A DNA stretch of 12,453 nucleotides from assembly GCA_035625455.1 (NCBI GenBank), contig DASPPO010000036.1, forward strand, positions 1 to 12,453, given 5' to 3'. The translations under genes and the position numbers were made by a program. This stretch comes from Nitrososphaerales archaeon. GTDB lineage: Archaea > Thermoproteota > Nitrososphaeria > Nitrososphaerales > Gagatemarchaeaceae. Under the pieces are notes generated by a model that did no database searches, had not been told where the DNA came from, and worked only from the letters and a program-made list of their open reading frames with translations. Of the stretch, positions 1 through 12,295 are shown one piece after another. The stretch's first letter is position 1, and each line of letters starts with the position of its first letter.

Positions 1-1023
1 GTGGGCGCCGGCATGATTTCTGCCCTCCCCCAGCCCCTTTCCAATTTTCTGAGCTTCCTTGTGGTGGGGGCGGGCGGGGACTCGGCCGAGTTGCTGAGGT
101 TCTTCGACCTCCACGTGATTGTATTGCCGGCAATACTCCTCGTCCTTCTCGTCGTCAAGATGTACATGCTGGAGGCACACGGAATATCCGAACCAGTCAC
201 CGGGAATGATGGTTCAGAGAAGGGCAGGAAGCTGATTCCAATATTCCCCAACGTCACGTTCTACCTGGCCGAGTTGGCGACGCTCTTTGGGGCGGCGATG
301 ATGCTCTTCTCCGTCCTCTTCCCTCTCGTGCTCCAGCCGGCGTACTCGGCGACGGCGGCATCGCAGTATACCCACCAGCAGCCCGACTGGTACTTCCTTT
401 GGATTTACCAGCTCCTGAAGATATCAGCGTTTGAGAGCGCAGGGCTCCCTGTCGCCCTGACGGCTGTGACTTTGATTTTCATACTGCTCCTCCTGCTCCC
501 CTTCCTGGACAGGGGAAAGGTCAGGAGGGTAAGCCAGAGGCCGTTCTACGTGACCGTGGGTCTGGTGCTGGTGGCCGAGATCATCGTGCTGACCATCTGG
601 GGGTATCTCACCCCAGGAGAGGTGATCCCTGACGAGCAGGCGGCCCTGGTGCTCGGAGGGACGGCGATGGCGGTGGTGGTCATCACACTGCTGTCGTATC
701 GCCTTGTGCTCGGGAGACTCGTCGGGAAGTTGGACACCATTTCCCAGCAGGGGTCCGCTATACGCTCCTCCGGTGTCTGGACGGCTGCTGCGTTCTCCTT
801 CCTTCTCGGGCTCGGGGCCTTGGCGATGGGATCGGCGGCCAACACCCTCACGGGACTGGTATCTACCGGGGGCGCATTGGGGTCCTGGGCGTACCTCGCG
901 GGCGCTTCGGGGGTCCTGGCCGCGGCGATGGGGGCGACGGCATACCTTCTGTACAGAGTGGACTTGGGGACCGGCGCCGTAAGGAGGAGGATAAGGGCGT
1001 TCGAAGTGGGGTGGAGAGAGTGA
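1..1023 (+). CDS. Cytochrome b of a Rieske/cytochrome bc-type complex, 5'-truncated by the window edge (helix D onward, plus the subunit-IV-like C-terminal half and extra C-terminal TM helices)
   Basis: The frame is open from nt 1. The first residues (GAGMISALPQP) align with the mid-protein WGATVITNLLSAIP block of canonical cytochrome b, so the GTG at nt 1 is probably internal. Contains the helix-D block RFFDLHVIVLP and the Qo-site signature PDWYFLWIYQLLK (PEWYF motif). Many hydrophobic helices. Stop TGA at 1021-1023. Confidence 0.85.
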   Translation: MGAGMISALPQPLSNFLSFLVVGAGGDSAELLRFFDLHVIVLPAILLVLLVVKMYMLEAHGISEPVTGNDGSEKGRKLIPIFPNVTFYLAELATLFGAAMMLFSVLFPLVLQPAYSATAASQYTHQQPDWYFLWIYQLLKISAFESAGLPVALTAVTLIFILLLLLPFLDRGKVRRVSQRPFYVTVGLVLVAEIIVLTIWGYLTPGEVIPDEQAALVLGGTAMAVVVITLLSYRLVLGRLVGKLDTISQQGSAIRSSGVWTAAAFSFLLGLGALAMGSAANTLTGLVSTGGALGSWAYLAGASGVLAAAMGATAYLLYRVDLGTGAVRRRIRAFEVGWRE

Positions 1024-1295
1024 GCACTAGAAACGACTGGGGGAGCACCAAGATTTTCGTGCTACTGCTGCTCGCCGTGCAGGTGGTCGCAGTGGTGTTC
1101 GCCTGGCTGCTCAACCCGCTGGGCGCGAAGAGCGAAACAGAGTACGCCCTGCTGCTGGCCGTCGACCTCGTGGCGTTCGCGCTCATTTCCTATGTAGGGA
1201 GGTTGGGGGGAACGGGCAAGGATCCGAGGGGAGGTTATGTCCTGGCGGGTTCGGCTGTAGTGCTCTTCCTCATGTTTCTTGTACTGCTGGCTTGA
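1011..1295 (+). CDS. Small hypothetical membrane protein (about 91-94 aa, three predicted TM helices)
   Basis: ORF starting at GTG 1011 or GTG 1020; the latter forms a GTGA overlap with the cytochrome b stop. Three hydrophobic segments: IFVLLLLAVQVVAVVFAWLL, YALLLAVDLVAFALISYV, YVLAGSAVVLFLMFLVLLA. No family recognised. Confidence 0.5.
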   Translation: MERVSTRNDWGSTKIFVLLLLAVQVVAVVFAWLLNPLGAKSETEYALLLAVDLVAFALISYVGRLGGTGKDPRGGYVLAGSAVVLFLMFLVLLA

Positions 1296-1589: not shown

Positions 1590-1604
1590 GATGCTTAGAG
1601 CATC
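1590..1604 (-). terminator. Small hairpin overlapping the stop codon of the HTH_10 gene; possible terminator
   Basis: GATGCT-tag-AGCATC (6-bp arms, 3-nt loop). On the minus-strand transcript it is followed by GAGTTTCTGG (short T-run). Weak evidence only. Confidence 0.25.
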
Positions 1605-2250
1605 AATTCCTTCTCTCGCGATGTGTCTTCCTCTCTAGGTAATCATGCACTATCTTCCTCTGCCCTCTTCGAAGAATTTCTGCGAGAGTCGACTCCTTCA
1701 CGCCAGTCCTCAACGCCAGGCCCTTTAGGCCAATCCTCTTCGGAAAGTCCAGGTAGCCGGTCTCGAAGGCGATTGAAAGTATCTCTTCCTGGCGGCTGGT
1801 TAGCAGTTCGCTTTCATGCAGTTCTTTAAGGAGCCTCAGGTGGTATGTAATCTCTGATTTTTCCAGACCTTCCACGAGCTCCTTGTACGAATCCTTCCCC
1901 CCGAGAACGGTCCAGTGAGGCTGGCCCTGGGTTCCGATTACAAGGGAGGAGAGGAAGCACTTTGACTTCGCCACCTGTTTACAGACAGTGCATCGCTTGG
2001 ACGAAACCGAGCCATATACGTGCCCGGCTTTGGATCTCATAAAATCCACGTCGATCACGTCTCTGTCACCCTGAATCATTCTCATCAAATCCTCCATGCT
2101 GCCTGGGTCGACCTGGAGTTCGAAAAGATGCTCGACGATACCCCCCGCCAGGATTTTCGAATCAAGAATTTCAATGGACGCGCCATAACGCTCAGCGGCG
2201 AGCCTTATCCATTTGTGGGGCTGTGGGCACTCAAGAACGGCCTCTATCAC
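1603..2250 (-). CDS. HTH_10 (bacterio-opsin-activator-type) archaeal transcription regulator with a four-cysteine N-terminal domain
   Basis: 215 aa, GTG start at 2250. The C-terminal block LTSRQEEILSIAFETGYLDFPKRIGLKGLALRTGVKESTLAEILRRGQRKI is the classic HTH_10 motif. The N-terminal domain has C8 and C87-x2-C90-x7-C98. Confidence 0.85.
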   Translation of the reverse strand: MIEAVLECPQPHKWIRLAAERYGASIEILDSKILAGGIVEHLFELQVDPGSMEDLMRMIQGDRDVIDVDFMRSKAGHVYGSVSSKRCTVCKQVAKSKCFLSSLVIGTQGQPHWTVLGGKDSYKELVEGLEKSEITYHLRLLKELHESELLTSRQEEILSIAFETGYLDFPKRIGLKGLALRTGVKESTLAEILRRGQRKIVHDYLERKTHRERRN

Positions 2251-2362: not shown

Positions 2363-3751
2363 ATGGGAATCTTAGGGCAAGAGAGAAGAGAAATTTCATC
2401 AGTCCAAGTGCTGACGATAATTGTGATTCTGGCGCTGGCGGCGGGGGGAATATCCTTCATAGACACCTCACAGACGATGAGCAGCCAGATTTCCAGCCTT
2501 CAGAGCGAGGTAAGCGCCCTGCAATCGAGAACTGTTTCGACCGTAGTGAGCCAGAGCAGTTCCCAGGCGCAGGCAGAAGCCCCTGTAATACCGACGACGA
2601 GGCACTTCAGCTTAATCGTCACTAACGCACCGGTAGAAATCGCAACGAACGTCACCTATGATGCGTGGACCTTCAATGGTACCGTTCCTGGCCCCACCAT
2701 CAGGGTCAACCAAGGTGATACGATTGATTTCACGTTGTACAACCCCACCTCTGCAGCTCATTCTATCGACTTCCACGCTGCCCAAGTCGACTGGTCCACG
2801 GACTATGCGACAGTCCCACCCGGCGGGTCCAAGACGTTCAACTTCACGGTAAACTACCCGGGAATCTTCATGTACCATTGTGGTACGGCCCCTGTTCTCG
2901 AGCACATCGCCAACGGTATGTTCGGCGCGATAATAGTGAACCCCCAGACGCCGCTCCCCGCCGCTACCGGGGGAGAATACGTCCTCGTTGAGAACGAGTG
3001 GTACCTGAACTCGCTGCCAGGCACAGACGGTCACTACTCGGGCAACCTCACCAAGATGCTCGCCGCTACGCCAGACTACGTGACGTTCAACGGCACGGCG
3101 TTTCAATTCCAGAAGTCACCACTTCTCGTCGAGCCGAACCAGTTAGTGAGGCTCTACATCCTCAATGTCGGGCCAAGTCTTTGGGAGGCATTCCACGTCA
3201 TCGGAGCACTGATGGACACGGTCTACATCGACGGGAACCCGTCGAATGTCGAGCACGGCCTCCAGACCCTCAATATCCCGCCTTCAGGAGGAGCTATCGT
3301 CGACATGTACTTCCCTGATGCAGGCGGGGAAAATCCGTTTGTCAACCATGCCTTCGCCTACGCATCCATTGGGGCGGTCGGGATCTTCAAGGTTGCTGCC
3401 GCGGGACAGTCCACGACCACCGGCACAACAGCTTCGACGCAGACCTCTAGCTCGACTCCCACTGGAAGCGTGGGTGTTGCGATCAACTCTGGGTCGGCTC
3501 TCAACACGACGTCCACCTACTTCTCCCCGTCGACGATAACCGTGGTCATTGGAGTGAACAGCACTGTCATCTGGACAAACGACGACAGCGCAGAACACAC
3601 GGTCACAGCCACAAACAACAGCTTCAACTCAGGGTACATACAGCCGGGCCAATCGTTCACCTACACCTTCACCACCCCAGGTACGTACACTTACTACTGT
3701 ACGATCCACCCGTGGATGAAAGGCACTGTCATAGTCAAGGCAGCTGGGTGA
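2363..3751 (+). CDS. nirK: Membrane-anchored NirK-type copper-containing nitrite reductase homologue (two cupredoxin domains) fused through a Ser/Thr linker to a C-terminal amicyanin-like cupredoxin domain
   Basis: 462 aa. NirK blocks present: H133-SID-F-H138-AA, Y-H172-C173-x7-H181-x4-M186, and FVNH329AFAYASIGAVGIFKV. N-terminal TM segment VQVLTIIVILALAAGGISF. Linker QSTTTGTTASTQTSSSTPTGS (nt 3407-3469). C-terminal domain carries H412 and YYC446-TI-H449-PW-M452. Eight N-x-S/T sequons. Confidence 0.85.
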   Translation: MGILGQERREISSVQVLTIIVILALAAGGISFIDTSQTMSSQISSLQSEVSALQSRTVSTVVSQSSSQAQAEAPVIPTTRHFSLIVTNAPVEIATNVTYDAWTFNGTVPGPTIRVNQGDTIDFTLYNPTSAAHSIDFHAAQVDWSTDYATVPPGGSKTFNFTVNYPGIFMYHCGTAPVLEHIANGMFGAIIVNPQTPLPAATGGEYVLVENEWYLNSLPGTDGHYSGNLTKMLAATPDYVTFNGTAFQFQKSPLLVEPNQLVRLYILNVGPSLWEAFHVIGALMDTVYIDGNPSNVEHGLQTLNIPPSGGAIVDMYFPDAGGENPFVNHAFAYASIGAVGIFKVAAAGQSTTTGTTASTQTSSSTPTGSVGVAINSGSALNTTSTYFSPSTITVVIGVNSTVIWTNDDSAEHTVTATNNSFNSGYIQPGQSFTYTFTTPGTYTYYCTIHPWMKGTVIVKAAG

Positions 3752-3755
3752 TGCC

Positions 3756-4223
3756 ATGCCAGATACCAACCCTCGTCCCGTGGACCAGGCTAGGCGCGAT
3801 GCCATAATCAAGATCCTCGGCGGCGCAGCGACTCTGGTGGCTTTGGCGGTGGGGGCCTATGCTCTCTCGTCCGGGTCCCCTTCGCCCCAGGATGCAAGTC
3901 AATCCTCCCTGTCCACGCGCTCGTCCACGGTTTCAGGGGCCTCTGGGGTGCTCGTTCAATCTGGCAGCGCAAGCGGGACTACAGTCCGAGTAGTCTATTT
4001 CGGGATGCCTCTGAATGTGACTGGTTCTAAGAAGGAGACCGTTACTCTGAGCAATCCTGCCTATCTATCAGACCTCAAGGCTCTGTTGGTTACGATGCAT
4101 CCAACTCTCAAAGATATGCTCCCCACGATGCTGTTCCTGGTCGATGGCGTTTCCGCAAATGGTAACCCGCGACTTCAGAACGATGTTGAGGTTGATATTT
4201 TAGCCCAGATTGCAGGCGGCTAG
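3756..4223 (+). CDS. MoaD/ThiS/SAMP-like ubiquitin-fold (beta-grasp) protein ending in Gly-Gly, with an N-terminal twin-arginine-containing signal/TM anchor and a Ser-rich stalk
   Basis: 155 aa; ATG lies 4 nt after the nirK-like stop. The N-terminus QARRDAIIKILGGAATLVALAVGAYA|L looks like a signal peptide or anchor. It is followed by a Ser-rich low-complexity stretch (aa about 37-75). Residues about 76-155 (VRVVYFG...LSDLKALL...LFLVDGV...LQNDVEVDILAQIAGG-stop) match the MoaD/ThiS pattern, including the terminal diglycine. Confidence 0.7.
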   Translation: MPDTNPRPVDQARRDAIIKILGGAATLVALAVGAYALSSGSPSPQDASQSSLSTRSSTVSGASGVLVQSGSASGTTVRVVYFGMPLNVTGSKKETVTLSNPAYLSDLKALLVTMHPTLKDMLPTMLFLVDGVSANGNPRLQNDVEVDILAQIAGG

Positions 4224-4232
4224 CTGGCGAAA

Positions 4233-4580
4233 TTGGAAGAGAAACACTTTGGACCTCCCAGGGGACTTATTCCCGGCCAGAAGGAGATCTTGTCCCTCTT
4301 GGTGGCATATCAAGAGGGATCAGTAGTCAGCCGGACGATCATCAACAAAAGAGAAGGAACCGTAACCATTTTCGCCTTCGACGAGGGTGAGGGCCTTAGC
4401 GAGCACACCGCCCCCTACGACGCACTCTTGCACATCCTCGAAGGGAGAGCCGAAATCACGATCTCAGGAAAAACGAGTTCTGTCGAACAGGGCGAGGCGA
4501 TTATACTCCCCGCGGGAAAACCCCACGTCGTGAGGGCTTTGAGCAGGTTCAAAATGTTGCTCACTATGGTAAGAACATAG
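4233..4580 (+). CDS. Cupin-domain protein (cupin_2-like, single domain)
   Basis: 115 aa from TTG 4233. Cupin core: GTVTIFAFDEGEGLSEHTAPYDALLHILEGRAEITISGKTSSVEQGEAIILPAGKPH. No signal peptide. Its stop TAG (4578-4580) overlaps the next gene's GTG by 1 nt. Confidence 0.8.
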   Translation: MEEKHFGPPRGLIPGQKEILSLLVAYQEGSVVSRTIINKREGTVTIFAFDEGEGLSEHTAPYDALLHILEGRAEITISGKTSSVEQGEAIILPAGKPHVVRALSRFKMLLTMVRT

Positions 4581-5044
4581 TGACGTCCATGTCCAATGCT
4601 CCAGGAGCGCCTCGGCGGCTGGCGTTTGCGGACCTGATTTCGGTGCTCATATCAGAGCATGCTGAAATTGAACGTAAGCTTACGGAGCTCAGAAGGTCCT
4701 CCGAGACCAAGGATTTCACGCGTTCTGAGGCAATCCTAAAGGACCTAGACAAGCTGTTTCGACAACACATAGCGGACGAAGAAGCACAGGTGCTTCGCTT
4801 CTTGATCGATGCCTATGGTGTGAAAGGAGCGGAGTCCGCAATCATGATTTTCCGTCAGCATCGACCCATCTACCGATTGATCCAGGAAGTGGGGAAACTC
4901 GCATCACTCCCACCTGGAGAGCTTGCTGTGAACGAAGCGAAACTGAGTGAACTGCTCACGGAACACACAGGAGCTGAGGAGACTCTCATCTTCCCAAAGG
5001 CGCTATCCACATTCAACACTAGATCGCGCATGCCGAGCCCCTGA
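4580..5044 (+). CDS. Hemerythrin-like (HHE cation-binding) four-helix-bundle protein
   Basis: 154 aa from GTG 4580 (alternative ATG at 4589). Repeated H-x3-E type motifs on predicted helices: SEHAEIE, RQHIADEE, RQHRPIY, TEHTGAEE. No signal peptide. Confidence 0.75.
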   Translation: MTSMSNAPGAPRRLAFADLISVLISEHAEIERKLTELRRSSETKDFTRSEAILKDLDKLFRQHIADEEAQVLRFLIDAYGVKGAESAIMIFRQHRPIYRLIQEVGKLASLPPGELAVNEAKLSELLTEHTGAEETLIFPKALSTFNTRSRMPSP

Positions 5045-5150: not shown

Positions 5151-5651
5151 CTACCGCTGCGGCAGCCGCGCGGGTGATTTCTGGACGACTCCAATAATTA
5201 CGACTATGATTCCCGCTACAATGCAGAGGAATCCCAAAAGAACCAGCACGCCATACCTGACTATGCCAGAGTTGAGGGGGGTTGCGACAATAGTCGTGCT
5301 AGGCGGGGATGGAGCAAAGGAGACGTAAAAGTAGTCTCCTGTCAGGCGCGTGTACGTATCGCTTCCCGAGGCCGACGCGTTGATGGGGATAGCATAGGTG
5401 CCAATGTTCGTCGAGTTCACCAGGCCGAGATCTTGGGCGTGGATTACCCCACCATTTGCTGAGGGAGAAGTTATGACAAGTGCCGATGTCGTGTTTAGCA
5501 CTATCTCGGCGGAGACGTACTCGCCGGAATGGGGCTCGGTGAAAGATTTGCTTATCGTCAGCGTGTTGAGCGCTCCGATGACACCCACCGCTAGGAGGGC
5601 CAATCCGACGACAAGCACAACCACTCCAATCACCACCCTACGGGTTCTCAT
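5151..5651 (-). CDS. Hypothetical bitopic membrane protein (N- and C-terminal TM helices flanking a beta-rich, sequon-bearing external domain)
   Basis: 166 aa with an ATG start. N-terminal TM VVIGVVVLVVGLALLAVGVIGAL and C-terminal TM YGVLVLLGFLCIVAGIIVVIIGVV followed by a basic tail. N-x-S/T sequons at NTT, NST and NAS. No family recognised. Confidence 0.65.
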   Translation of the reverse strand: MRTRRVVIGVVVLVVGLALLAVGVIGALNTLTISKSFTEPHSGEYVSAEIVLNTTSALVITSPSANGGVIHAQDLGLVNSTNIGTYAIPINASASGSDTYTRLTGDYFYVSFAPSPPSTTIVATPLNSGIVRYGVLVLLGFLCIVAGIIVVIIGVVQKSPARLPQR

Positions 5652-6054: not shown

Positions 6055-6828
6055 TTACTCAATCAGTCTCTTTAGCAGAACAGAAGAGCTGAGTATGAAG
6101 GCGGTCGTGAAGGCAAGCAGCACGAGAATGTCTACGGGGAGGCCGGAGTAGTCCCCGGTAAGCAGCATGGCCCTCATGGCGTCGACCACGTAGCTGAGCG
6201 GGTTGTACACGGAGATGGTCTGCAACCACGTGGGCATGAGAGAGATGGGATAGATCGCATTGCTGGCGAAGAAGAGGGGCATCGTTATCACCTGGCCAAT
6301 TCCCATCATCCTGTCTCGCGTCTTTAGAAAGGACGCCAGGGTCATGGAGAGGCTCGCGAAGCACATGGCGAAGAGCACTGACACCAGCAGGACCCCGGCG
6401 ATGTCCAGCGGGTCGAAACGCAGGTTCACGCCTATGATCAGTGCCAGGGCGAAAATCATGATCCCCTGAAATATTCCCCTGACGCCCGCTGCCAGTGCCT
6501 TCCCGACGACGACGGAGATTCGGGGAGACGGGGTCGAAAGGAGCTTAGTGAGCAGGCCCACGTCTCGTTCCCAAACAATCGTAATCCCGTAGAATATCGC
6601 TATGAAGAGGACAGACTGTGCGAGTACACCTGGCGCAATGTACTGCATGTAGCTGTAGCCACCGGGGGCGAGGCCCCGAATGGTGTTGAAGACCTCCCCG
6701 AACACTAAGAGCCACAGCGCCGGCTGGACTGTCCTCATCCAAAGCTCGGTGGAATCGTGGCGCAACTTCCTTGCCTCCATCTCGGCTATGGTGAATGCGC
6801 TGGAGACCGACCGCTGAAGAGTGCTCAT
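6055..6828 (-). CDS. ABC-2 type transporter permease (DrrB/NodJ-like exporter membrane subunit)
   Basis: 257 aa with about six TM helices. The N-terminus (AEMEARKLRHDSTELWMRTVQPALWLLVFG) and overall pattern are typical of the ABC-2 family. ATGA start/stop overlap with the upstream ATPase gene at 6825-6828. Confidence 0.85.
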   Translation of the reverse strand: MSTLQRSVSSAFTIAEMEARKLRHDSTELWMRTVQPALWLLVFGEVFNTIRGLAPGGYSYMQYIAPGVLAQSVLFIAIFYGITIVWERDVGLLTKLLSTPSPRISVVVGKALAAGVRGIFQGIMIFALALIIGVNLRFDPLDIAGVLLVSVLFAMCFASLSMTLASFLKTRDRMMGIGQVITMPLFFASNAIYPISLMPTWLQTISVYNPLSYVVDAMRAMLLTGDYSGLPVDILVLLAFTTAFILSSSVLLKRLIE

Positions 6829-7742
6829 CGTCCGTGCCTCGTCGCGCTTCTTCGTGCGGAGCGGGCGTCTTTGTAGCTGTCTATCTGCTGCAGCGAACCC
6901 TTGGCGTACTTCATGAACACGTCGTCGAGAGTGGGCCTGCTCAGGGAGATGGATTCGACCGTGGCCCCTAGGCCTTCGAGATAATCAGTTATCCGAGGGA
7001 TGACCTTTTCGCCGTCAAGCGTCAGAATCTTCATAGTTCCCTGGCTTGAGCTCGATATCGAGCCGAGTTCAGGGGGGACTGAATCAGGGAGCTTCCCAGA
7101 CGCAGTAATCGTCAGCACGTCCCCGCCGACCGAACGTTTGAGCTCCTTCGGGGCCCCTGACGTAGCTATCCTTCCCATGCTCATTATGGCCAGCCTGTCG
7201 CAGAGCTCGTCGGCCTCGGCCATGTCGTGGGTTGTAAGCAGGATAGTCGTGCCGAAGTTGCGGTTCAGCTGCTTGATGTGGTCTATGACCTGCAGGCGCG
7301 AGTAGGGGTCTAGCCCTATGCTTGGTTCGTCAAGGAAGAGTAGTTTGGGGCGGTTGACCAGGGCCTGCGCGATTTCGAGGCGTCTCATCATTCCTCCAGA
7401 GTAGTGTTTTACGAGGTCGTTCGCCCTTTCCGCGAGCCCGAAGAGCTCGAGCGCATCGTGTATCCGTCTGTCACGTTGCTCGCGCTCCACATAGAAGAGC
7501 TTTGCGAAGATTAGAAGGTTCTCGTAGCCTGTGAGGTCGCCGTCGACAGAAATTGCTTGGGGGACAAATCCGAGCATCCGTCTGACTGCCTCGGGGGAGC
7601 TGAGCGCGTCGACTCCGAAAACCCTGATGGCCCCTGCTGTGGGTCTCGAGATTGTGGTGATCATCTTGATTGTTGTGGTCTTGCCGGCGCCATTGGGGCC
7701 CAGGAGTCCGAAAATTTCCCCCTCCTTCACTTCGAAGCTCAC
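6825..7742 (-). CDS. ABC transporter ATP-binding protein (DrrA/CcmA-like, partner of ABC-2 permeases); the true start is probably upstream of 7742 (see findings)
   Basis: Walker A GPNGAGKTT, Q-loop, signature YSGGMMRRLEIA, Walker B LLFLDEPSIGLD and H-loop TTHDM are all present. Coordinates run from the first canonical start (GTG 7742). The conserved first strand VAVHVSGLTKIYAGGTRAVDDV is encoded in-frame upstream of it. Confidence 0.9.
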   Translation of the reverse strand: MSFEVKEGEIFGLLGPNGAGKTTTIKMITTISRPTAGAIRVFGVDALSSPEAVRRMLGFVPQAISVDGDLTGYENLLIFAKLFYVEREQRDRRIHDALELFGLAERANDLVKHYSGGMMRRLEIAQALVNRPKLLFLDEPSIGLDPYSRLQVIDHIKQLNRNFGTTILLTTHDMAEADELCDRLAIMSMGRIATSGAPKELKRSVGGDVLTITASGKLPDSVPPELGSISSSSQGTMKILTLDGEKVIPRITDYLEGLGATVESISLSRPTLDDVFMKYAKGSLQQIDSYKDARSARRSATRHGR

Positions 7743-7858
7743 ATCGTCAACGGCTCTGGTTCCGCCTGCGTAGATCTTCGTCAGACCCGAAACGTGGACG
7801 GCGACCGTGCCCTTCTGCTCTTCAGGTTCCCTTGCGGCTTCGAGCTGCTGAGGGAGGG

Positions 7859-8410
7859 TCAGCTTCTCTCCCCTCCTGTGTCCCCAGCTTGTACCGTTAG
7901 GTCTCCTCCAGCAGCAAGAGCCTTCTCGAGAATGTCGTGCAGGGCTCGCTTTTCCCCGGCGCTCAGAGGTTCAAAGAGTGCAGACATGGAGACCAGCTGT
8001 TCCCTCCTCCACGAACCAAGTTTCTTGGCGCCCCTCTTCGCCAGCGTAACGGTGACAATTCGTTCGTCCCTTTCCCTTCTCTCCCTCTTTACCAGTCCAG
8101 CCCTTTCCAGTCGTTTTGCCGCAATTGAAGCTGACCCGGCAGTGCACCCAATTCCCGAAGCGATATCCTTGATTTTCATCTTTCCGTGTTCCCTGAGCAT
8201 TCTGAGTATCCAGTACTGCTCTCGCGTTATCGCCCCCCTCTTTACCGGAGAAGCCGACCTCCACCTCTGCCACAGAACCTGCAGCAGGTCGCTGACGCTC
8301 TCCGAAGACACAAGGGGCAATGGTCTGAGGGGATTAATTAGACTATCTATTCGTTTGACAATCAAATATTCTTCTCGTCGAGCGTGATAAATGGGGAACT
8401 TCCCCTTCAA
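7859..8410 (-). CDS. MarR-family winged-helix transcription regulator (maximal ORF; likely start is GTG 8311, giving 150 aa)
   Basis: wHTH core: ITREQYWILRMLREHGKMKIKDIASGIGCTAGSASIAAKRLERAGLVKRERRERDERIVTVTLAKRG. The first 33 codons from TTG 8410 fall in a markedly AT-rich stretch that looks like a promoter. Confidence 0.85.
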   Translation of the reverse strand: MKGKFPIYHARREEYLIVKRIDSLINPLRPLPLVSSESVSDLLQVLWQRWRSASPVKRGAITREQYWILRMLREHGKMKIKDIASGIGCTAGSASIAAKRLERAGLVKRERRERDERIVTVTLAKRGAKKLGSWRREQLVSMSALFEPLSAGEKRALHDILEKALAAGGDLTVQAGDTGGERS

Positions 8411-8428: not shown

Positions 8429-9142
8429 TTACAGAAGTGGAACCAGAAGTACTGCCACTAACCCTGTCAGAAACACGCCGTCGAACGTCCCCGCTCCTCC
8501 GATGCTCGCCATGGATGATCCCAGCTTTCCTATGCCCCTTAGGTTCGTGATGTCCGCGCCAATCAGAGTGCCCAGAGTCCCTGATACGTATGCGACCACC
8601 GCGGGGGAGCCAGGTACGAGCAGATACGACACAACGGCGGCAACGATTGGGGGGAGAAACGAAGGCGTCACGATCCCCACTCCCCTCACCTTCCTCGCCA
8701 TGAGGTGCACCATGACCGCAACGACGACCGTGCCCAGAATAGCGGCCGGAAGGAGGCTGGAGTGGCCGACAAGCAGGTAAACCGAGACGAGTATGGGGAT
8801 AACTGCCCCGCCGACGTTCACGGCGATTACGGTAATCGCCTGTTTGTACACTACGCTCGGGACCCGATAGTACAGCCCAAACACTCTGACCTCCTGAATG
8901 GCCACCCGGGGCTCGGAGCTCTTCACTTCCCCCACCGGGACATTGATCATGCTCCCTAGGAGTGTTCCCCATAGGATTAGGAGATATTCGATAGAGTTGA
9001 ACCCGATCCGTTCGAAGGCGATGTCGCCAAGGCTGAGAAGCAAGACGACGATGATTACACCCGTCACCAATGCAAGAGCCGTGGACAAGAAGCTCCGGTG
9101 GTAACGGTGGACGACAATGCGTTGATTCAAGGGGACGTCCAC
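8429..9142 (-). CDS. Polytopic integral membrane protein, DUF1614-like (family recalled from memory)
   Basis: 237 aa from GTG 9142. Multiple TM helices. Gly-rich blocks (INVPVGEV, IAVNVGGAVIPILVS, IGGAGTFDGVFLTGL) resemble the DUF1614 family. Confidence 0.7.
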   Translation of the reverse strand: MDVPLNQRIVVHRYHRSFLSTALALVTGVIIVVLLLSLGDIAFERIGFNSIEYLLILWGTLLGSMINVPVGEVKSSEPRVAIQEVRVFGLYYRVPSVVYKQAITVIAVNVGGAVIPILVSVYLLVGHSSLLPAAILGTVVVAVMVHLMARKVRGVGIVTPSFLPPIVAAVVSYLLVPGSPAVVAYVSGTLGTLIGADITNLRGIGKLGSSMASIGGAGTFDGVFLTGLVAVLLVPLL

Positions 9143-11557: not shown

Positions 11558-12295
11558 ATGCCCCTGTCAGCACCAACGGAACTCCCACAATTGGCGAGCC
11601 TACCGGACGACCATGCCCAGTCTGAGCGTGCGCGCTATCTTTTCGCATGTGCGATAGCGGGTGTGATTCTATACGTCATCCTGGACGCGGTCGTCCAGTC
11701 TCTCCCGCCGCACTACAGTCCGATTAGTCAAGCCGAGAGCGACCTCGCGGTAGGACCATACGGGTACGTAATGACGCTGAACTTCATCAACAGGGGCGTC
11801 CTGTCTCTCTGCTTTCTCTTCGGAGTCGTCCTGACCGTCTACAGCACGGAAACGGCGAACGCAAGGCTCAGGAGGGGCGCGTACGCGTTTGCCGTCTGGT
11901 CCGTGGGCGCCCTGTTGCTTGCAGCGTTTCCCACCGACGTACCTGCTACACCTGTTTCGTGGCACGGTGCGATTCATCTGTTGGTGGCCATCTTGGCCTT
12001 CCTCGGGGGCGCGTTTGGGGCTCTCTACATCTCCCTGGGGATGGTCGGGAGCGGTCCCGTCGCAAGGGCAAGGAGTTTTGCCCTCCCGCTTGCGGTCTTG
12101 TCGGTATTCCTCTGCTTAGTGGAGCTTCTTGGCCCCTTTGCGGCCCCGGGCTTCTTCTCCCATTACGGGGGTCTGGTGGAGCGTGTGTTCCTAAGTTCTG
12201 TGCTGCTCTGGGTAACCGCGGTCTCCGTAAAGATGTTAGCAAATCCTCCTCTACCAAAGGGGCCGACTGAGCAGTCTCAGGCATCCACGCCCTAG
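11558..12295 (+). CDS. Integral membrane protein, DUF998-like (family recalled from memory)
   Basis: 245 aa with an ATG start and about six TM helices. The block YSPISQAESDLAVGPYGYVMTLNFINRGVLSL resembles the DUF998 pattern (Y-x-P...IS-x-L...G...M...F...G). Confidence 0.6.
   Translation: MPLSAPTELPQLASLPDDHAQSERARYLFACAIAGVILYVILDAVVQSLPPHYSPISQAESDLAVGPYGYVMTLNFINRGVLSLCFLFGVVLTVYSTETANARLRRGAYAFAVWSVGALLLAAFPTDVPATPVSWHGAIHLLVAILAFLGGAFGALYISLGMVGSGPVARARSFALPLAVLSVFLCLVELLGPFAAPGFFSHYGGLVERVFLSSVLLWVTAVSVKMLANPPLPKGPTEQSQASTP

Follow-up and report, generated by a model that had tools for sequence, protein, structure and literature searches.

A gene at positions 3756 to 4223 (forward strand) of a 12,453-nt stretch of DNA from a Nitrososphaerales archaeon (contig DASPPO010000036.1; hereafter the window, whose numbering is used throughout) encodes a ubiquitin-like (Ubl) protein of 155 amino acids (aa) in which a MoaD/SAMP1-type beta-grasp domain with a free C-terminal Gly-Gly (GG) is joined to a predicted twin-arginine translocation (Tat) signal, and it lies directly behind a gene for a copper nitrite reductase (NirK). 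Residue numbers refer to the 155-aa product of this open reading frame (ORF). Proteins of the MoaD/ThiS/SAMP/Urm1 type are regarded as cytoplasmic carriers that depend on ATP and an E1 enzyme. The superfamily is a known one, but the architecture, the predicted location, and the partner are new. Signal-bearing ThiS or MoaD proteins are not mentioned in the principal comparative surveys of Ubl and beta-grasp proteins from prokaryotes and archaea, which place only other branches (for example YukD, SLBB, and staphylokinase) in membrane or secretion contexts, and full-text literature searches returned no account of a MoaD with a Tat signal or of a MoaD paired with NirK. The reading favored here, at a probability of roughly 40%, is that the Ubl protein is a Tat-exported accessory factor of NirK that would act in Cu(I) delivery or maturation. 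A sequence-only reading of the window had offered three possible roles (a pre-activated carrier exported by Tat, an accessory or maturation factor for the copper enzyme, and a surface conjugation tag), and we would place the second of these first.

The Ubl ORF is complete, with an ATG start, 155 codons, and a stop codon, and shows a third-codon-position bias over its full length. Its ATG lies 4 nt past the NirK stop codon (3749-3751), a spacing that recurs in several related loci, and its 3' end reads ...EVDILAQIAGG-TAG, with G154-G155 (4215-4220) as the last two codons ahead of the stop (4221-4223). Among 5.8 billion proteins searched with a word index, 42 close relatives were found at an E value ≤1e-3, nearly all of 143-155 aa, in whose alignment the twin arginine (RR), the hydrophobic h-region, a VVYFGMP motif, and the terminal GG are kept while the linker varies. 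In a codon alignment of six orthologues, changes at the first, second, and third codon positions numbered 129/89/265 over residues 1-37 and 246/173/659 over the beta-grasp domain, the third position dominating in both, and 232/171/281 over the linker, where constraint is more relaxed. One homologue, P0035 (L127:1513-1980), had been called as a protein of 104 aa; read from an ATG 153 nt ahead of its annotated start, it has the full RR-containing N-terminus in frame (MSRGNPRPVDQARRNAIIKVL...). Based on the codon constraint at the N-terminus, the conserved RR and h-region, and the full N-terminus of P0035, the long form is, as the alignments indicate, the real product, and a start at the in-frame internal GTG at 3948 is effectively excluded. 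Gene callers often begin family genes at an internal Met and so lose the Tat signal (P0035, and also P0039, P0040, P0196, and others), with the consequence that database lengths understate the spread of the N-terminal extension.

Residues 75-155 (3978..4220) form the beta-grasp domain. A model computed by AlphaFold2 with the family alignment has a predicted local distance difference test (pLDDT) value of about 90 over residues 75-150, with the structural elements in beta-grasp order. When this model was compared with the PDB by Foldseek, the top match was mycobacterial MoaD2 (6jbz_B; E 7e-6, TM-score 0.87), and further matches were human MOCS2A, Haloferax SAMP1 (3po0; TM-score 0.78-0.80), Pyrococcus MoaD, E. 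coli MoaD (TM-score 0.76), and Urm1, the Ahp1-Urm1 structure 7q5n among them. A profile of the domain aligns to MoaD2 from the first strand through the terminal GG (E 5.7e-6). Against Pfam ThiS (PF02597) the window protein scores 17.5-19.8 bits, under the cut-off of 22.5, in an end-to-end alignment, and against NCBIfam moaD it reaches an E value of 0.13. Among 37 broader relatives, PF02597 was matched by 36 (best E 1.3e-11), NCBIfam moaD_arch (TIGR01687) by 31, SAMP1 by 11, and Urm1-like by 5; Pfam and NCBIfam comparisons disclosed no dedicated curated model for the Tat-bearing family. When 1.84 billion cluster representatives were screened exhaustively with a profile, 317 proteins matched at E ≤1e-3, 70 of them at E ≤1e-10; judged by these matches, the window gene belongs to a larger family, within which it is divergent. 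Of the 317, the 150 best matches mostly have 115-173 aa and consist of an RR motif, a linker, and then the domain, which ends exactly at GG. All 181 extended members end in GG, as do 289 of the 307 unique sequences of the family. The MoaD/ThiS/SAMP-like fold and the free C-terminal GG that the sequence-only reading had claimed are thus both borne out, and the homologues keep the N-terminal anchor together with the GG, most exceptions at the N-terminus being truncated gene calls or variants with Lys-Arg (KR) in place of RR.

Near-invariant residues of the domain are Y81, M84 (4005-4007), E94, P101, H115 (4098-4100), M121 (4116-4118), M125 (4128-4130), and G131. Conservation in the 181 extended members is 99% for Y81, 96% for M84, 99% for E94, 96% for P101, 97% for H115, 96% for M121, and 99% for M125. 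As a comparison, short sequences (≤92 aa) were taken, a group in which canonical MoaD is mixed with truncated fragments of the family. Y81, E94, and H115-P116 are also common in this mixed group, about half of which has Met at the positions of M84, M121, and M125; the others have G/Q/S/A, I/V/L, and C/L/A, respectively. The aligned positions of mycobacterial MoaD2 are Ala, Val, and Cys. M84, M121, and M125 form a largely family-specific Met triad. The length of the tail equals that of canonical MoaD (EVDFIPxxAGG in the family, EVAFFPPVTGG in MoaD). On canonical beta-grasp topology, M84 (end of strand 1), H115 (C-terminal end of the main helix), M121 (the 3-10 turn after that helix), and M125 (start of strand 3) would share one edge of the sheet and ring the exit of the tail, in places that correspond to the Leu8 and Ile36 patches in ubiquitin. 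The domain contains no Cys, and a beta-grasp ferredoxin with a 2Fe-2S cluster was rejected for that reason.

In front of the domain lie three segments. The n-region (residues 1-19, PRPVDQARRDAIIK; 3756..3812) is rich in Pro and Arg and carries R13-R14 (3792-3797) in the motif A-R-R-D-A-I-I-K, which is slightly divergent from the family; RR is shared by all close homologues whose N-terminus is complete. The h-region (residues 20-36, I20-A36, ILGGAATLVALAVGAYA; 3813..3863) is conserved in homologues and ends in the AxA-like AYA. The linker (residues 37-74; 3864..3977) is rich in Ser, Thr, Ala, and Gly, has low pLDDT and relaxed codon constraint, and varies in sequence and length at a constant composition; linkers in the family have a median length of 32 aa and contain 24% Ser, 11% Ala, and 11% Thr. 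The family-wide pattern is clearer than that of the window protein. A consensus from 176 sequences picked for an [RK]R motif reads (S/A/T)-R(97%)-R(100%)-x-(A/L/F)-(L/I)-(R/K), the canonical form among the best 150 family members is (S/T)-R-R-x-(F/L/A)-(L/I)-(K/R), and N-termini such as SRRRLLKSVLLLSAVG, TRRAALKGIFLASAG, and SRRDFLKWMFGSALG resemble textbook twin-arginine signals. RR is present in 171 of 227 unique family members of at least 115 aa, and RR-x-h-h (h, hydrophobic) followed by an h-region in 162 of the 227; members lacking the latter mostly start at an internal Met just past the RR, an artifact of gene calling, or are KR variants. AxA-like cleavage sites follow the h-region in many family members.

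These N-termini have the features of Tat substrates, namely a Z-R-R-x-hydrophobic-hydrophobic motif and a moderately hydrophobic h-region. The mean Kyte-Doolittle hydrophobicity of the Ubl h-region is 1.88, as compared with 2.45 for the anchor of the adjacent NirK, and this lower value fits targeting by Tat as opposed to Sec or the signal recognition particle (SRP). Tat exports folded, pre-modified proteins. Together, these observations strongly support the prediction that the Ubl protein carries a conserved twin-arginine export signal or anchor, as the sequence-only reading had suspected from the n-region and the h-region with its AxA-like site. A further element of that reading, an N-x-T sequon in the domain, did not hold up: N87 varies among close homologues, and a functional glycosylation site there was discarded for this reason. 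A lipoprotein was likewise discarded, since the sequence has no Cys or lipobox.

The NirK gene (2363..3751, forward strand) encodes a membrane-anchored enzyme with a fused C-terminal amicyanin-type cupredoxin and has PDB, Pfam, and NCBIfam matches. In the PDB it is closest to 3x1e ('Nitrite reductase', E 1.5e-69), which we take to be a Geobacillus enzyme, and the motifs HSIDFH, YHCGT...HIANGM, FHVIG, and VNH, presumably the type 1 and type 2 Cu ligands and the catalytic Asp and His of NirK structures, are aligned and conserved between the two. The match to TIGR02376 (E 6.9e-55, 186.6 bits) stays under the equivalog cut-off of 296.3, and the cupredoxin has the motif YYCTIHPWM. By these matches the upstream gene is a bona fide nirK, and NirK with an amicyanin-type C-terminal cupredoxin has already been noted across Thaumarchaeota (PMC11237513). 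Counting the fused cupredoxin, the enzyme requires three Cu per monomer. Its N-terminus (window 2363-2600) consists of a very hydrophobic anchor and, behind it, a conserved stalk with a heptad-like pattern (DTSQ..QISSLQSEVSALQ), and RR is not conserved there. Given such an anchor without a conserved RR, NirK probably crosses the membrane unfolded via Sec/SRP and acquires its three Cu outside, while its Ubl partner would use Tat. Export of NirK as a hitch-hiker was rejected since NirK has its own membrane anchor. The heptad-like segment, DTSQTMSSQISSLQSEVSALQSR, was seen in the window, in loci L001-L007, and in about 20 metagenome loci, and may form a trimeric coiled-coil stalk.

The pairing of the two genes recurs. 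Related loci were collected with a degenerate DNA pattern for GDEVDFIP across Joint Genome Institute (JGI) metagenomes, followed by ORF calling and a hidden Markov model search, which yielded 69 family genes in 61 unique loci. Sequence of at least 600 nt upstream, the threshold for an informative locus, was available in 37 of the 61, and in 31 of these 37 the gene immediately before the Ubl gene, in the same orientation, is nirK, with gaps between the two genes of -178 to +82 nt (most -4 to +66 nt). In L009, a 32nd locus with NirK, the nirK gene is 1.5 kb away and divergent, on the opposite strand; in two of the remaining five informative loci, the upstream sequence is only about 670 nt long. 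A NirK-like ORF is found within 5 kb in 42 of the 61 loci, almost always just ahead of the Ubl gene and in the same orientation, and the pairing persists while Ubl identity drops to about 35%. Five contigs with close relatives and two contigs of metagenome-assembled genomes (MAGs; labeled Nitrososphaerales and Nitrosopumilales) also have the Ubl gene behind an ORF of 444-489 aa with Cu-oxidase and cupredoxin domains, usually with a gap of 4 nt. These arrangements strongly support the prediction that the Ubl gene is co-transcribed and translationally coupled with NirK, and the coupling to a nirK-like gene seen by the sequence-only reading in the window is borne out more strongly at the level of the family.

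In the favored reading, the N-terminal twin-arginine signal would direct a folded MoaD-type beta-grasp across the membrane via Tat, and the exported domain would then be released or held on its Ser/Thr-rich stalk; its coupled partner NirK is itself anchored by its N-terminus on a stalk outside the cell. Outside the cytoplasm the Ubl domain would serve as a dedicated accessory factor of NirK. The collar of M84, M121, M125, and H115 around the base of the flexible GG tail would make up a soft-ligand Cu(I) site, and this Met3His site could capture Cu(I) and pass it to the copper centers of NirK or of the cupredoxin. Routing by Tat may reflect a fast-folding beta-grasp or loading before export. 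A role in Cu(I) handling is ranked first because a Met3His set is typical of extracytoplasmic Cu(I) chemistry, because this set would surround a flexible tail, because the partner is probably Sec-routed and needs three Cu per monomer, and because there is an experimental precedent for a NirK: AccA, a periplasmic Met/His chaperone, delivers Cu(I) to the NirK AniA of Neisseria via an H/M motif (PMC13006917). Like AccA, a PCuAC protein of Neisseria gonorrhoeae, the Ubl protein would be a small extracytoplasmic protein with conserved Met and His that serves a copper nitrite reductase, and a functional analogy is proposed. PCuAC proteins, however, are not beta-grasps, and their motif is HXnMX21/22HXM, whereas the putative Cu-binding motif of the Ubl family is M...H-x5-M-x3-M. 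As the fold is not that of a known chaperone family, the claim is that the protein may work like a Cu(I) chaperone and not that it belongs to one. A second comparison is offered by MelC1, the Tat-signal 'caddie' of Streptomyces tyrosinase, a small protein encoded beside the gene of a copper enzyme that depends on it for copper loading and export. The fold of MelC1 is not a beta-grasp, and its signal-less partner hitch-hikes, whereas NirK has its own anchor.

Several points weigh against a role in copper delivery. First, the grouping of the three Met and H115 about the tail is deduced only from beta-grasp topology, and the Met residues could equally be a hydrophobic docking patch like those around Leu8 and Ile36 in ubiquitin. 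Second, H115-P116, as mentioned, is shared with the short mixed group, including canonical MoaD, and the Met/His motif differs from that of PCuAC; we also know of no Cu chaperone with a beta-grasp fold. Third, a pure metallochaperone would have no obvious need for an invariant terminal GG on a tail of canonical MoaD length. Fourth, family members in L008, L032, and L074 lie away from NirK. Finally, export and Cu binding are both predictions.

The first of these points leads to a different account of the same gene pair, in which the Ubl protein carries neither copper nor sulfur and is a metal-free docking or regulatory subunit that binds the NirK trimer or the cupredoxin through its Met-rich patch, places its GG tail in a narrow channel, and stabilizes, assembles, or gates the enzyme. 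The tight conservation and translational coupling of the pair fit this account. So does the tail, whose length and GG match those of MoaD, where the tail inserts into a pocket of its partner MoaE; the conserved patch, moreover, would correspond topologically to the partner-binding surfaces of ubiquitin and MoaD. Three invariant Met residues, however, would be unusual for a plain interface, no fusion of NirK and Ubl occurs among the matches listed, and NirK is not adjacent in some family members. Overall, we consider a docking subunit unlikely, though it is one of the two leading alternatives.

The invariant GG and the canonical tail are best accounted for by a pre-activated carrier, the first of the three roles in the sequence-only reading. 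A cytoplasmic E1 of the MoeB/UbaA type would adenylate and thiocarboxylate the GG, Tat would export the folded protein, and the thiocarboxylate would serve outside as a soft Cu ligand, as a donor of sulfur or reductant, or in an ATP-independent, oxidant-triggered conjugation as in Urm1. The GG is found in every extended member with canonical MoaD tail geometry, Tat accepts folded and pre-modified cargo, the nearest curated families (moaD_arch, SAMP1, and Urm1-like, with the counts given above) are active sulfur carriers or modifiers, and the Urm1 thiocarboxylate conjugates independently of E2 and E3. E1 enzymes also occur in the lineage, as Thaumarchaeota encode Ubl-E1 fusions (PMC11237513, PMC2948915). 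The neighborhoods point the other way: E1, JAMM, rhodanese, MoaE, and ThiG are all missing from the recurrent neighbors in the 61 loci, and no E1-like ORF was found in 743 kb of family loci with an E. coli MoeB sequence as the probe, so that a local E1 partner was discounted. MoaD/ThiS proteins work with an E1-like adenylating enzyme (MoeB, ThiF, or UbaA) and an acceptor of the MoaE/ThiG type, whose genes are often close by; the window itself contains neither, nor was a JAMM gene noticed in it. Further, NirK has no known need for sulfide, and a thiocarboxylate outside the cell would face oxidants and Cu(II). A pre-activated carrier is considered as unlikely as the docking subunit. We think it somewhat less likely still that such C-terminal chemistry is combined with the copper site, in that a GG thiocarboxylated by E1 and exported on the folded protein would be used together with the Met3His collar, without ATP, to capture Cu(I) and deliver it to NirK, or would undergo oxidant- or NO-triggered, Urm1-like conjugation to NirK or to surface proteins.

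A protein anchored with its N-terminus out and its C-terminus in, and thus an ordinary E1-dependent sulfur carrier tethered to the cytoplasmic face of the membrane, would square the GG with ATP-dependent chemistry, and the charge bias of the window protein taken alone is weak. This topology is nevertheless improbable given that the conserved RR/K-rich n-region before the h-region, together with the Tat consensus of the family, predict the opposite orientation (N-in, C-out), that many family members have AxA-like cleavage sites, and that Ser/Thr-rich stalks, one of which is also present in the neighboring NirK, are in our experience typical of extracytoplasmic archaeal proteins. Least likely by far is that the product is an ordinary cytoplasmic MoaD of 91 aa started at GTG 3948, with the upstream extension an annotation artifact: the GTG is there and some database homologues are called short, but the 37 N-terminal codons show coding-type constraint (purifying selection), RR and the h-region are kept down to about 35% identity, the short-called homologue has a complete N-terminus in frame, and the ATG sits 4 nt behind the NirK stop in several loci.

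Compared with known systems, the Ubl family is closest to MoaD and archaeal MoaD (TIGR01687, PF02597; MoaD2 6jbz and 6jc0; human MOCS2A 5mpo), with which it shares the beta-grasp (TM-score 0.80-0.87), an end-to-end profile match, the tail length, and the GG before the stop. It differs from MoaD in its added Tat-type signal and Ser/Thr linker (about 75 aa together), in the specific Met triad, and in being encoded with NirK and not with MoaE, MoeB, or genes for the molybdenum cofactor, with no E1 found in its neighborhoods; unlike canonical MoaD/ThiS proteins, which are cytoplasmic and have no targeting signal, it is predicted to be exported. SAMP1 of Haloferax volcanii (3po0/4hro) and Urm1, which double as sulfur carriers and as protein modifiers joined to target lysines by isopeptide bonds that a JAMM protease reverses, resemble it in fold (TM-score 0.78-0.80) and in the C-terminal GG. 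They are cytoplasmic and depend on UbaA/Uba4 and ATP, whereas the Ubl family is predicted to be exported and has no link to JAMM, E1, or the proteasome in the loci examined. YukD, which presumably lacks a GG terminus, and EsaB belong to ESX/type VII systems and have neither a Tat signal nor a link to copper enzymes. They are similar to the Ubl family as prokaryotic ubiquitin-like folds in membrane or secretion contexts, and YukD is not conjugated (Iyer et al., 2006; PMC1779556).

Other genes flank the pair. A divergent HTH_10 regulator (1603..2250, reverse strand; Pfam E 8.5e-16) recurs in 24 of the 61 family loci and also in L001, L002, L004, and L009. Starting 9 nt past the Ubl stop, a Cupin_2 gene (4233..4580, forward strand; Pfam E 1.8e-10) has no signal peptide by eye, and a homologous ORF is present within 5 kb in 20 of the 61 loci. 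A hemerythrin-like gene (4580..5044, forward strand; Pfam E 4.5e-11) without an evident signal peptide begins on the final base of the cupin stop codon, and two clusters of hemerythrin-like neighbors occur in 14 and 13 of the 61 family loci. The cupin and hemerythrin genes are tightly coupled behind the Ubl gene and may be a branch of its operon that acts in the cytoplasm in relation to NO or O2. The sequence-only reading had also drawn attention to a CDC48 unfoldase gene about 5 kb downstream; CDC48 is absent from every related locus examined, its proximity in the window is coincidental, and the link was dropped.

At the other end of the window (1-1295), there is a 5'-truncated cytochrome b, with b/b6-type N- and C-terminal domains and a long membrane extension at the C-terminus, and behind it a membrane protein of 94 aa; these neighbors point to a respiratory-chain setting for the NirK cluster. 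The remaining genes noted are a 166-aa protein with terminal transmembrane segments (5151-5651, reverse strand), an ABC-2 exporter pair (DrrA-like ATPase and permease) with a MarR regulator, and membrane proteins of the DUF1614 and DUF998 families (6055-8410 and 8429-9142, both reverse strand; 11558-12295, forward strand). The genes in these four regions look unrelated, and none of them recurs near family members. An Rfam scan of the window gave no match to an RNA family.

Some loci differ in their surroundings. L008 (5968-7295 of a 965-kb contig) has no NirK within 6 kb and has genes for a ZnuABC-type metal transporter upstream; directly downstream lies a 254-aa protein with a transmembrane segment, a Ser/Thr linker, and a cupredoxin-like C-terminus without the Cys ligand, for which there is no Pfam match. 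In L032 (2762-3292, 4131-4346), where NirK is likewise not adjacent, an Oxidored_molyb protein of the sulfite-oxidase/YedY type is encoded about 0.8 kb away on the opposite strand, and an HTH_10 regulator lies on the other side. In L004/L005 (8551-10917), an ArsR-type regulator, an SQR/FCSD-like flavoprotein, TusA, and DsrE are encoded convergently just downstream of the Ubl gene. These sulfur-relay neighbors were rejected as partners because they do not recur beyond this one pair of loci.

Most family loci come from peat or soil metagenomes, and every named member comes from a MAG. The 90% cluster of the window protein includes HYA56225.1, 'hypothetical protein [Nitrososphaerales archaeon]', and other family members are labeled as MAGs of Nitrososphaerales or Bathyarchaeia. 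Two loci, L004 and L009 (HXX72085.1 and HUK50540.1), are labeled 'Acidoferrales bacterium' and 'Terriglobales bacterium' and have the archaeal-type set of HTH_10, NirK-cupredoxin, and Ubl as in Nitrososphaerales MAGs; these bacterial labels probably reflect mis-binning. One family locus adjoins genes for a [NiFe] hydrogenase and complex I, which hints that the hosts are Nitrososphaeria that do not oxidize ammonia.

Family genes are currently labeled 'hypothetical', 'MoaD/ThiS family', or 'molybdopterin converting factor small subunit', and the last of these is probably wrong for the Tat-bearing family. The frequent loss of the Tat signal through gene calling is also relevant to annotation. A protein that unites the intact hallmark of a carrier (the free GG on a canonical tail) with a Tat signal would carry ubiquitin-fold biology beyond the cytoplasm, and it raises the question of what purpose a GG tail serves where ATP is unavailable. 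To our knowledge, the maturation and regulation of archaeal NirK are poorly understood, and the activity of this enzyme bears on the release of NO and N2O. The family marks a previously unnoticed and tightly coupled partner of NirK in uncultured archaea of the Nitrososphaeria type in soil and peat.

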